Source: Escherichia coli (GTDB lineage Bacteria; Pseudomonadota; Gammaproteobacteria; Enterobacterales; Enterobacteriaceae). From it: DNA of 64,000 nucleotides. Location of the stretch: NCBI RefSeq assembly GCF_046105845.1, contig NZ_CP151004.1. One strand, 5' to 3'. Made by a program: the position numbers. Within the stretch, counting starts at the first letter, position 1. The number at the start of each line of letters is the position of its first letter. Positions 43,952 to 46,900 of this stretch are shown here, one piece after another.

Positions 43952-46900
43952 TCATCCGCCATGTTGCCGGTATGTTTCCCTTCTTCGGTTCCCTGCCAGC
44001 CATGTCGTTGAATTAATGACAGATGTTCGCGGTCCTCAGTAATGATCTCACTTAACATCGCGCTGGTGCGTTTATAGACCGCCGCGCGGGCTTTGGTGTC
44101 GTTCTCAACCATTGCCATCTCTTCCACCATCTGAATATTAAAGCGGCGGAACACATCGGCACGTTCTCGCGCTTCATACGGCCCCAGACCTAAACTTTCC
44201 AGTGCCAGACGCCCGGTTTTCAGCGCACCTTCGAAGGTTTCACGCTCCGGCTTTTCAACGCCTGCCTGACGCAAACGAATGTAGTGATCGACATCGCGGG
44301 CGCGGGCAATAATCTGCAAATGCGGGAAATGTTCTTTCACCATCTCCGTCAGTTGCAGGTTGGTTTGCGGATCGTCGATGGCGTTAATCAGCACTTCCGC
44401 TTTCGCCGCTCCCGCAGATTCCAGTAAATCCATCCGCGTGGCATCGCCATAAAACACTTTCATACCGAATTTACGCAGCGTTTCGATATGGTCCGGGTCG
44501 TGATCGAGCACCACCATTTTCACCCCGCTGGAGAGCAGTAAACGTCCGGTGATCTGCCCAAAACGACCGAATCCGGCGATGATTACCCGCGGCTGTTCTT
44601 CGTCGATCTCATCGGCTTCACGCGCCTCTTCACTAGAAGATTGCTCAAGGCGATTGAGGATCACCAGCAGAATCGGCGTTGCCGCCATCGACAACGCCAC
44701 CGCCAGAGTCAGCGATTTCGCCCACTCCGGCTCCAGCACATTCGCCATCTGCGCCGCACCAAATACCACAAAGGCAAACTCACTGCCCTGCCCTAACAGC
44801 ACCGCAAACCAGCGACGCTGTTTATTTGGCACCTGCAACGGTCGGGCAATCAGCCACAGCATGGCGATTTTGATGATGAGGAAACCGAGCAGCAGAATGA
44901 CAATACGCAATGGGTTTTCAATCAGCGTGCCAAAGTCTATCGACATGCCAACGCCAATGAAAAACAGCCCCAGCAGCAAACCTTTAAAGGGTTCGATATC
45001 GCTTTCCAGCGCATGACGATATTCCGAGCTTGCCAGCAGTACGCCCGCCAGAAACGCGCCCATCGCCATCGACAAGCCGACCTCTTCCAGCAGCAAACCA
45101 AAGCCAAACACGAGGAATAACGCCACGGCGCTGAACACTTCGCGCAAGCCAGAGCGGGCGACAAAGCGCAGCGCCGGACGCGTGACATAGCGCCCCAGCA
45201 ATACCACCAGCGCCAGCGCGCCCGCCACTTTTAACGCCGAGAGAGCAAATGCGCCCATCGTCGTCGAGGCACTGCTCGCCGCCAGTAGCGGGATCATCGC
45301 CACCAGCGGGATCGCCGCGATATCCTGGAACAGCAGCACCGCAAAGGCACTGCGACCCATTTGCGTCACCATCAGATTGCGTTCATTCATCGCCTGCATG
45401 GCAATCGCCGTAGAGGAGAGCGCCAGCGTCATGCCGATCAATTCCGCGACCTGCCAGCGCAGCCCAAGCAACATACAGAACAGCCCCAGCAGGCCGCCGC
45501 AAATCACCATCTGCAATGCGCCACCACCGAACACCGCCGCACGCAGCTTCCACAGCCTTTGTGGATCGAGTTCGAGGCCGATAATAAACAGCATCAGCAC
45601 CACGCCAATCTCGGCAAAGTGCAGAATAGATTCGGCATCGGTCACCAGTCGCAGCCCCCACGGGCCAATAATGCAGCCAGCGATCAGGTAGCCAAGTACC
45701 GATCCCAGACCAAGACGTACCGCAATGGGTACAATCAGCGCCGCCGAACCGAGATAAATCAGCGCCTGAATCAGCGTATGGCTATCCATGATGTGCCTCC
45801 TGCCATTCCAGCAGACGTTGCTTATAGTGACGCGCCTGCCCTTCGAGGGTTTCGTCGTCACAAATAAAGGTACAGTGCATGGCAAACGGTGGCAGCCAGT
45901 TCAGCCCGCAGTAGATTGCCGTCGCCTGTAGCGGCTGCGACAGCACATCAAAGCCCGGATGCGCACCAATTTCAAAATGGCTTTCCCCGCCGCCGGTCGT
46001 CACCGCCCACAGCAAATGTTTGCCATGCAGCGCCGTACCGCCGTGACCGTAAGCCCAGCCGTGCGAGAAAACTTTATCGATCCAAAGTTTGAGGAGCGGT
46101 GGAATGCTGTACCACTGCATCGGGTGCTGCAAGACGATCAGATCGGCACGAGACAGCGCCTCCTGTTCGGCGGCAATGTCGATATTGAAGTCAGGATAGA
46201 GTTGATAAAGAGAGCGAATTTCAACGCCTTCCAGCGTCCTTGCCTGTTCAAGCATCCGTTTATTCGCATGGGAATGATGCGGATACGGATGCGCATAAAT
46301 TATAAGAATCATAGGTAGCCCGCGTGATTACGCCTTTGTTTTCCCACAAAGTGTAGTCATATATTCACGCGGCTTATAGTCAATAATATTGATTCAGAAA
46401 AGAGAGAAATCTGAACAAATTACCCCATTCTCTGCCCGCGGATCGTCATATTGCTGGTCTGCGCCAGTGACATCCCTCGAGTCTCCGGGGCAAACGCTAC
46501 GGAAATCAACAAGCCAAACAGCGAGATACCCGCCCCCATTAACATCGTGTTACTGATACCGTAATTATTGATAAAGATCGGCAGTGCCCAGGTCGAAACA
46601 ATAGTGCCAATACGGCTTAAGGACATAATCACGCCCACGGCAGAGGCGCGGATATCCGTCGGGAAGAGCTCATTAGGATAGAGCCACTGCAAATTACCCG
46701 GCCCGCCAGAGAAAAAGGCATACACCGCAAAGGCCATCACTACCAGCCAGATCCCCATATCCGGGATCAGCCCCAAAACCGCCAGCGCCAGCGTCATCAT
46801 GGCAAAGCTGCCAATCAACAATGGACGCCGTCCGGCAGTGTTTAACCACAGCATCGGTGGAATACAGCCGAGCATAAAGAACAGGCTAATCACCACGTTC

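Follow-up and report, generated by a model that had tools for sequence, protein, structure and literature searches.

Overlapping junctions in the carAB–murE region

The window analysed here, a stretch of 64,000 nt from Escherichia coli, corresponds to the E. coli carAB–murE region in reverse complement and shares ~97% identity with K-12. The coding sequences (CDSs) of K-12 MG1655 mapped onto it match without gaps at all relevant CDS ends, and translations are intact for every K-12-derived gene model; the leader upstream of leuA and the riboswitch upstream of thiB also lie at the expected places. Overlapping junctions make up nine of the 41 adjacent same-strand pairs in the window (22%). Each of the nine consists of two intact open reading frames (ORFs) in the same direction, the second of which starts before or inside the stop codon of the first, and all agree with the curated K-12 gene models. 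The overlaps and the stronger Shine-Dalgarno (SD) sequences are listed below, with the dG of the SD duplex in kcal/mol.

721-734, minus strand: overlap of the ftsI stop and the murE GTG start, GTGGCAGATCGTAA, 14 nt
739-744, minus strand: murE SD, GAGGGG, dG -8.0
2865-2868, minus strand: overlap of the rsmH stop and the ftsL start, ATGA, 4 nt
2876-2881, minus strand: ftsL SD, AGAGGA, dG -6.5
11942, plus strand: overlap of the leuA stop and the leuB start, TGATG, 1 nt
19167-19191, plus strand: overlap of the thiB stop and the thiP start, ATGGCAACGCGCCGTCAGCCGTTAA, 25 nt; weak SD (-3.5)
20761-20777, plus strand: overlap of the thiP stop and the thiQ start, ATGTTAAAACTGACTGA, 17 nt; weak SD (-5.0)
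40142, plus strand: overlap of the surA stop and the pdxA start, TAATG, 1 nt; no SD (-1.9)
41128-41131, plus strand: overlap of the pdxA stop and the rsmA (ksgA) start, ATGA, 4 nt; no SD (+0.6)
45782-45789, minus strand: overlap of the kefF stop and the kefC start, ATGGATAG, 8 nt (-8 class), identical to K-12 47769-47776
45796-45800, minus strand: kefC SD, GGAGG, within the last kefF codons, followed by the 6-nt spacer CACATC
48094-48097, minus strand: overlap of the fixC stop and the fixX start, ATGA, 4 nt
48108-48113, minus strand: fixX SD, AAGGAG, 10-nt spacer, dG -8.2 (quantile 0.015)

The eight overlap lengths given in the initial annotation are all exact, the junction table from the mapped K-12 CDSs giving the same values; the ninth overlap, the 14 nt of ftsI/murE, had been overlooked, and 12 further junctions, whose genes are separated by +1 to +17 nt, had been left aside. 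Its description of the overlaps as tight is true of six of the nine and does not fit thiB/thiP, thiP/thiQ and ftsI/murE. As had been proposed, the overlaps lie within known operons (kefFC, fixABCX, leuLABCD, thiBPQ, surA-pdxA-rsmA-apaGH and the dcw cluster mraZ-rsmH-ftsL-ftsI-murE), and the start codons chosen coincide with those curated for K-12, which are also the ones conserved in other genera; a check of alternatives found, at any junction, no in-frame start further downstream that lies at a plausible distance and has a stronger SD. For operons other than kefFC and the surA operon, membership is presumed from established knowledge (EcoCyc/RegulonDB). Membership is stated in the literature for kefFC (PMC10224563) and for surA-pdxA-ksgA-apaG-apaH (PMC1084345). 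The TRAINSPOTTER and TetRP supplements, checked for start-site data, include none of these junction genes.

Conservation across genera

An overlap is kept at all nine junctions in other genera, the comparators for surA/pdxA/rsmA, ftsL and murE being one or two genera. The ATGA of fixC/fixX is present in 27 of 27 species in which the fix block adjoins kefF (frames assigned by homology), and the fixX SD is conserved in these 27 species; Cedecea is unusable for this comparison because it lacks the cai-fix-yaaU block. FixC and FixX form a putative partnership. The rsmH/ftsL arrangement is the same in Salmonella and Cedecea, which also keep the 14-nt ftsI/murE overlap with its GTG start. In both genera the leuA/leuB junction reads TAATG and the alternative leuB GTG at 11939 is replaced by GTA, so that the ATG is the conserved start. 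Cedecea has an 8-nt surA/pdxA overlap, ATGGCTAA, likewise without an SD, and it conserves both the ATGA of pdxA/rsmA and the missing SD.

Salmonella, K. aerogenes, Cedecea and Buttiauxella all retain the thiP ATG and the 25-nt length of the thiB/thiP overlap; no more than two of its 25 nt are substituted in any of them, whereas the flanks vary. The overlap of thiP and thiQ, which encode the permease and the ATPase of one ABC transporter, is conserved in Salmonella, K. aerogenes and Cedecea and lost in Buttiauxella. "Fusion proteins" of ThiP and ThiQ (763 aa) were considered as a natural overlap allele and rejected, as they actually reflect a G4 to G3 deletion at 20753-20756; this allele occurs in 0 of 5,398 matching complete E. 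coli genomes, and the fusions are thus rare mutants or homopolymer assembly errors.

The kefF/kefC junction

The minus strand at this junction reads GGAGG CACATC ATGGATAG, with the kefC ATG at 45789-45787 and the kefF TAG at 45784-45782. The overlap has the form NTGGATAR in 79 of 79 Enterobacteriaceae species, and its variants keep both frames, a GTG start being paired with His to Arg in KefF and a TAA stop with Ser3 to Asn in KefC. With a dG of -10.3 kcal/mol, the kefC SD duplex lies at quantile 0.002 of the background for the window, and the codons that form it are frozen across species, Q171 as CAG in 78 of 79 and E172 as GAG in 79 of 79, while GAA and GAG are about equally used at the other Glu codons of kefF. 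In a MAFFT-guided codon alignment, only 4 of 107 conserved degenerate codons of kefF have an invariant third position, and three of these four synonymous sites are those of Q171 and E172 (caGGAGg) and of G177, which lies within the overlap (P = 2e-5). The freezing of kefF synonymous sites at the SD and the overlap shows that selection acts directly on the initiation signals of kefC. What the frozen SD sites show is selection for the initiation of kefC rather than for coupling, and an SD of this very high strength could allow fully independent initiation.

An internal promoter or terminator in kefF that would uncouple kefC was considered and rejected, since on the kefFC strand the kefF interior holds no terminator-like and no promoter-like site; a single promoter-like match on the plus strand within kefF is at chance level. 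The fold of the kefF/kefC junction is no better than that of shuffled sequences (z = -0.23), and the consensus hairpins of thiB/thiP fall on sequence that does not vary and have a covariation term of ~0; shuffles and covariation thus give no evidence either way for a conserved inhibitory RNA structure at these two junctions. In the data of Mori 2021, KefC is close to the detection limit and KefF is undetected. KefF binds the C-terminal KTN domain of KefC, and the two have been crystallised as a fusion (PMC2920069). Both kefF and kefG are described as preceding the efflux gene within one operon and as overlapping it by a few bases (PMC10224563).

Ribosome binding sites, spacing and RNA structure

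Ranked against the 5,977 start-like triplets of the window, the SDs of four of the nine downstream starts fall among the strongest 5% (binomial P = 6e-4). An SD inside the upstream 3' end is found for kefC, fixX, murE and ftsL; leuB (dG -5.4) and thiQ are marginal in this respect, and thiP, pdxA and rsmA fall short. By the spacing criteria for coupling of PMC12548453 and PMC10666635, kefF/kefC, fixC/fixX, rsmH/ftsL, leuA/leuB, surA/pdxA and pdxA/rsmA lie within the efficient range (-8, -4, -1 or a small gap), and ftsI/murE (-14), thiP/thiQ (-17) and thiB/thiP (-25) lie outside it. The mean opening energy is 8.1 kcal/mol for the overlap starts (n = 9) vs 6.4 kcal/mol for free-standing starts (P = 0.026), and it is higher still, 10.3 kcal/mol, for internal coding positions. 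This modelled order is as expected if overlap starts were aided by unfolding by the upstream ribosome. The overlaps exceed chance, as seen in their cross-genus conservation, the SD enrichment and the invariant synonymous sites of kefF.

Overlap and translational coupling

The initial annotation took the overlaps to indicate translational coupling, a reading supported only in part. An overlap makes coupling possible and is by itself no proof of it; no published coupling tests of these gene pairs were found in the literature searched. The enriched spacings, -4, -1 and -8, are classes associated with coupling, and short overlaps show a 4.5-fold enrichment for heteromeric complexes (PMC12548453, PMC6728339, PMC10666635). 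In a reporter study of native E. coli -4 pairs, four of five were coupled and bioBF was uncoupled; the SD was important in four of the five E. coli pairs assayed and is not universally needed (PMC6728339). In the same literature, junctions with the smallest gaps match -4 overlaps fairly closely in coupling, and in the systematic synthetic constructs of Tian & Salis, according to PMC12548453, coupling efficiency drops with longer overlap and none is seen at -25 nt. Depletion of RRF left coupling ratios unaffected genome-wide (PMC7538156), and whether coupling works by reinitiation or by unfolding is contested. Given the loss of efficiency with length, thiB/thiP is a poor candidate for classical reinitiation and, to a lesser degree, so are thiP/thiQ and ftsI/murE. 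With no SD at pdxA or rsmA and a strong one at each of kefC, fixX and murE, the nine junctions probably differ in mechanism.

At each junction both frames are real, and it is the annotated starts that are conserved. The junctions are very probably genuine, evolutionarily maintained start/stop overlaps of consecutive cistrons, with a presumed coupling that falls into three groups. In general, a ribosome at the end of the upstream gene would cover the downstream start with its footprint, and translation of the first gene would thereby promote initiation of the second. The first group would comprise kefF>kefC (-8), fixC>fixX (-4), rsmH>ftsL (-4) and leuA>leuB (-1), which combine canonical spacing with an SD embedded in the upstream gene; here the upstream ribosome may open local structure, allowing the SD to capture a 30S subunit, either just released or new, and for the KefF/KefC complex this would aid matched output. 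The second group, surA>pdxA (-1) and pdxA>rsmA (-4), has canonical spacing without an SD, and initiation, which would probably be weak, would most likely need either the terminating ribosome or recognition of the start without an SD. The third group, ftsI>murE (-14), thiP>thiQ (-17) and thiB>thiP (-25), lies beyond the efficient range and is most readily explained as dual-coding arrangements that are hard to shorten; initiation would be mainly de novo (murE, with its strong SD) or deliberately inefficient (thiP), and unfolding by the upstream ribosome would at most help.

It is conceivable, although on balance unlikely, that the junctions jointly form a graded set of translation-ratio devices that goes beyond on/off coupling. 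If so, the SD-less series surA>pdxA>rsmA would be an obligate low-yield reinitiation that steps expression down the operon; thiB/thiP, where the 25-nt overlap comes with a weak SD and a structured start, would be a throttle that keeps the binding protein well in excess of the permease; and the frozen kefC SD would offset the lower reinitiation efficiency of a -8 overlap and provide ~1:1 output for the complex.

The overlaps could also be by-products of compaction and mutational drift, each downstream gene being initiated independently and the overlap having no translational role. The -4 class may, as a review suggests, be abundant largely because it evolves easily, the start codon providing three of its four bases (PMC12548453); moreover, bioBF is uncoupled despite its -4 overlap (PMC6728339) and the RRF result (PMC7538156) also fits independent initiation. 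The products of surA/pdxA, pdxA/rsmA and rsmH/ftsL are functionally unrelated, and these overlaps are therefore not explicable by selection for stoichiometry. We know of no complexes of SurA/PdxA, PdxA/RsmA, RsmH/FtsL, FtsI/MurE or LeuA/LeuB. The change of surA/pdxA from -1 in E. coli to -8 in Cedecea and the loss of the thiP/thiQ overlap in Buttiauxella point the same way. We nevertheless consider such an origin improbable: the overlaps keep their exact lengths in different genera although synonymous sites around them have diverged, the kefC SD sites are frozen (a sign of selection on initiation), the conserved absence of an SD at pdxA and rsmA is hard to square with efficient independent initiation, and most of the assayed E. 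coli -4 pairs are coupled (PMC6728339).

That some overlaps are annotation artefacts with the true start further downstream, which would be most plausible for thiP, thiQ and the GTG start of murE in view of the weak SDs of thiP and thiQ, the rarity of long overlaps and the preference of automatic gene callers for the longest ORF, is scarcely credible: the thiP ORF opens just 3 nt upstream of the annotated start, its next in-frame start (+66) has no SD, the N-terminus MATRRQPL and the ATG are identical across five genera and ThiP homologues are all 536 aa long, with 100% coverage; for thiQ, Salmonella, Klebsiella and Cedecea share the ATG, and the alternatives at +39 and +45 both lack an SD; the strong-SD GTG of murE and its N-terminus VADRNL are conserved in three genera; and the sole nearby alternative for leuB, the non-conserved GTG at -3, overlaps leuA too.

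Comparison with known systems

The maintained overlaps resemble the -4/-1/-8 pairs with proposed termination-reinitiation coupling (Huber et al., 2019, 2023; Brown & Wade, 2025), whose spacing is matched by six of the nine junctions and whose motifs recur here as ATGA (three times), TGATG/TAATG (twice) and NTGNNTAG (once). Four junctions also have an SD in the upstream 3' end, and kefF/kefC joins two subunits of one complex, as in the enriched short-overlap class (Huber et al., 2023). Three junctions (-14, -17 and -25) are, however, beyond the efficient range, and pdxA and rsmA have no SD, unlike the SD-dependent pairs of Huber et al. The pairs trpB-trpA and rplK-rplA, whose coupling has been explained by RNA unfolding with de novo initiation (Saito et al., 2020), are likewise adjacent cistrons with an embedded downstream start, and the overlap starts of the window are likewise more structured than free-standing ones; in contrast to these pairs, no specific inhibitory hairpin is detectable or backed by covariation at kefF/kefC and thiB/thiP. 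In phage fr, the lysis gene overlaps the coat gene by 34 nt and is reached by back-scanning reinitiation (Adhin & van Duin, 1990, as cited in PMC10666635); thiB/thiP and thiP/thiQ would similarly require the ribosome to move backward to the start, but fr is a phage system that uses the start closest to the stop, and PMC12548453 describes no coupling at -25 in synthetic constructs. The paralogous ancillary/efflux pair kefG-kefB, which lies outside the window, has the same arrangement by the description of a review of Kef systems (PMC10224563).

Significance

Overlaps of this kind are an ordinary and already-known feature of bacterial operons, and our knowledge of E. coli operons and of translational coupling is unchanged by them. 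Their main value is one of quality control: the gene models and start sites are right, and the reasoning from overlaps found real operon junctions. The kefF/kefC junction, in addition, offers a clean small example of selection on an internal ribosome-binding site within a coding sequence.

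Overlapping gene pairs in the window

The initial annotation had listed eight start/stop overlaps as a sign of translational coupling and as support for the chosen start sites. In a table of all 41 adjacent same-strand gene pairs of the window, each of the eight proved exact in position and length and identical to the curated K-12 record, and the overlap observation is confirmed; the list was short of a ninth case, the 14-nt ftsI/murE overlap.

Overlapping junctions of the window

721-734, - strand: ftsI/murE, 14 nt, GTGGCAGATCGTAA; GTG start; strong Shine-Dalgarno (SD) sequence GAGGGG at 739-744
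2865-2868: rsmH/ftsL, 4 nt, ATGA
11942: leuA/leuB, 1 nt, TGATG
19167-19191: thiB/thiP, 25 nt
20761-20777: thiP/thiQ, 17 nt
40142: surA/pdxA, 1 nt, TAATG
41128-41131: pdxA/rsmA, 4 nt, ATGA
45782-45789, - strand: kefF/kefC, 8 nt; kefC ATG 45789-45787, kefF TAG 45784-45782
48094-48097: fixC/fixX, 4 nt, ATGA

At the kefF/kefC junction the - strand reads GGAGG-CACATC-ATGGATAG. Overlapping pairs make up 22% of the same-strand pairs (9/41), an ordinary proportion; about 15% of all gene pairs overlap in most prokaryotic groups (Huber et al., PMC6728339). At twelve further same-strand junctions the genes lie only +1 to +17 nt apart, and spacings up to about +3 nt have been reported to couple as well as -4 overlaps (reviewed in PMC12548453), so that a survey of overlaps alone under-counts candidate coupled pairs.

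Short gaps among the further junctions

3806-3808: mraZ>rsmH, +1 nt
6543-6546: ilvI>ilvH, +2 nt
13033-13036: leuB>leuC, +2 nt
41949-41952: rsmA>apaG, +2 nt
58173-58179: caiD>caiE, +5 nt

Start sites and Shine-Dalgarno strength

Every in-frame start from the opening of the ORF to +150 nt was scored at each junction for pairing to the 16S 3' end, with 5,977 start-like triplets from the window as background (mean -2.4 kcal/mol, 5th percentile -6.5). A conserved downstream start with a stronger ribosome-binding site was sought, and no plausible better one was found at any junction, which supports the start sites as chosen. For thiP the ORF begins 3 nt before the ATG, and the next in-frame start, at +66, is without an SD; for rsmA it begins 6 nt before the start codon, with the next start at +72, and kefC has no alternative before +144. 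The sole close competitor, a GTG that precedes the leuB ATG by 3 nt, is replaced by GTA in both Salmonella and Cedecea, which leaves the ATG as the conserved leuB start. Start and stop codons are the same as in K-12 in all 16 junction genes checked.

Split by SD score, the nine junctions are of three kinds: canonical spacing with an SD (kefC -10.3 kcal/mol, quantile 0.002; fixX -8.2; ftsL -6.5; leuB -5.4), canonical spacing without one (pdxA -1.9, rsmA +0.6), and overlaps past the efficient range (murE -14, SD -8.0; thiQ -17, SD -5.0; thiP -25, SD -3.5). At four of the nine the SD ranks among the strongest 5% of background triplets (binomial P = 6e-4).

The mean predicted cost of exposing positions -15 to +5 around the start is 8.1 kcal/mol for overlapping starts (n=9) as against 6.4 for free-standing starts (P = 0.026) and 10.3 for random internal coding sequence; with nine cases only, this contrast fits some gain from unfolding by the upstream ribosome. 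No support was obtained for specific RNA structures at kefF/kefC or at the thiP start: the predicted fold of the kefF/kefC junction is no more stable than those of shuffled sequence (z = -0.23), and around the thiP AUG the predicted hairpins fall within invariant sequence, with no covariation.

Conservation of the junctions

For kefF/kefC, one genome per species was scanned, which yielded 80 Enterobacteriaceae loci, 79 of them analysable. All 79 carry NTGGATAR as the 8-nt overlap, preceded by GGAG(G) at a constant distance, and the few differences preserve both frames (GTG as start with KefF His->Arg, TAA as stop with KefC Ser3->Asn). A protein-guided codon alignment of kefF gave 107 conserved degenerate codons, only four with an invariant third position; three of these are Q171 and E172 (caGGAGg, the SD) and G177, within the overlap (hypergeometric P 2e-5). 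Glutamate codons elsewhere in kefF are evenly split between GAA and GAG, whereas GAG occupies the SD position in 79/79 species. These frozen synonymous sites indicate that the kefC initiation signals are themselves under selection. The same loci reach fixC/fixX in 27 species, with ATGA in 27/27 behind a conserved AAGGAG-like SD.

Along the syntenic region of Salmonella, the spacings equal those of the window at rsmH/ftsL (-4), ftsI/murE (-14), leuA/leuB (-1), thiB/thiP (-25) and thiP/thiQ (-17). All five are unchanged in Cedecea as well, with kefF/kefC at -8 and pdxA/rsmA at -4, and the missing SD at pdxA and rsmA is conserved there. At thiB/thiP the ATG and the 25-nt length are retained in five genera; no more than two of the 25 nt are substituted while the flanks vary, the pattern expected of dual coding (ThiB ...WQRAVSR*, ThiP MATRRQPL...).

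Judged by these comparisons, surA/pdxA and thiP/thiQ are less rigid. The former is -1 (TAATG) in E. coli (window 40142) and -8 (ATGGCTAA) in Cedecea (locus L091, 6108-6115), with no SD in either, and the PdxA N-terminus differs, MVKTQRV... in E. coli versus MANIFRV... in Cedecea. The thiP/thiQ overlap is lost in Buttiauxella (locus L086, about 3090-3220), where ATT stands at the thiQ ATG position, ThiP has lengthened to 545 aa and the called thiQ begins 78 nt past the thiP stop. Some draft and Logan E. coli assemblies carry 763-aa ThiP-ThiQ fusions (loci L087 and L088), caused by loss of one G from GGGG at 20753-20756, 5-8 nt upstream of the thiQ ATG, after which thiP reads on in the frame of thiQ where the two genes overlap. 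The deleted allele occurs in 0/5,398 matching complete genomes, so these fusions probably reflect rare mutants or errors of assembly. ThiB-ThiP-like fusions (P0021, P0022) were also recorded.

Relation to K-12

In reverse complement, the window corresponds to the E. coli segment from carAB to the start of murE (roughly 29.6-93.6 kb in K-12 MG1655). It is collinear with K-12 at about 97% identity, and each of the 51 K-12 protein-coding models mapped to it is intact. Among 5,426 complete RefSeq E. coli genomes the top identity over the kefFC region (43000-47000) is 98.8%, with none at 99%; over the espY2 region it is up to 99.6%, so similarity to finished genomes is uneven along the window. The thiB start codon is GTG in the window and K-12 alike. 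Three Rfam elements score above the gathering threshold in their expected places.

10178-10327, + strand: leucine operon leader, upstream of leuA
15086-15312, - strand: SgrS, intact, divergent from sgrR
18078-18177, + strand: TPP riboswitch, upstream of thiB

The differences from K-12 at setA, sgrR-thiB and yabP/yabQ fall outside the overlap finding. The setA gene, between sgrS/sgrT and leuD in K-12, is missing (about 15046-15087), and the K-12 sgrT CDS aligns over only its first 110 of 132 nt; setA is also missing at this position in Salmonella, and Cedecea has an MFS gene there. Between sgrR and thiB lies about 1 kb not in K-12 (17033-18042), present in about 1,034/5,426 complete genomes; its ORF (17268-17837, - strand), annotated as the T3SS effector espY2 in matching E. 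coli genomes, is weakly similar to yabP and has no Pfam match. The two short yabP and yabQ CDSs of K-12, which overlap by 4 nt, correspond here to a single intact 260-aa ORF with a pentapeptide-repeat domain (34302-35084, - strand), so that the K-12 overlap looks like a frameshift-split gene and not a genuine operon junction.

From overlap to possible coupling

Three overlap spacings, -4, -1 and -8, are enriched; coupling efficiency is highest from -4 to +3 nt and falls faster with added overlap than with added gap, and in a systematic series of synthetic constructs coupling was absent at -25 (PMC12548453). Four of five native E. coli -4 pairs were coupled in reporter assays and bioBF was uncoupled, the SD contribution ranging from essential to none (PMC6728339). 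It has been argued that reinitiation is not a major E. coli mechanism (PMC7538156), and the opposite view has been put forward by Huber et al. (2023; PMC10666635). None of these four papers names a gene pair of the window. Such results limit the coupling claim of the initial annotation. Sequence alone can show that coupling is possible and no more; it is plausible at six junctions and doubtful at three.

In the likeliest mechanism for kefF/kefC, a ribosome that terminates at the kefF TAG would span both the SD and the AUG, which lies 5 nt upstream of that stop, and kefC would then be initiated by the 30S subunit of that ribosome or by a new one, captured by the strong, selected GGAGG. KefF and KefC form one complex (PMC2920069, PMC10224563), and complex-forming pairs are 4.5-fold over-represented among short overlaps in E. 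coli (PMC10666635), which makes matched output a plausible selective reason. Because the absence of an SD at pdxA and rsmA is conserved, these two are likeliest to be initiated through the upstream ribosome or by a weak SD-independent route. Classical reinitiation is doubtful at thiB/thiP and thiP/thiQ, whose long overlaps are more plausibly read as dual-coding arrangements that resist shortening and possibly hold permease synthesis under that of the binding protein. There is nothing new in the overlaps themselves: overlapping co-directional gene pairs have been well described as a class, and the junctions of the window belong to it.
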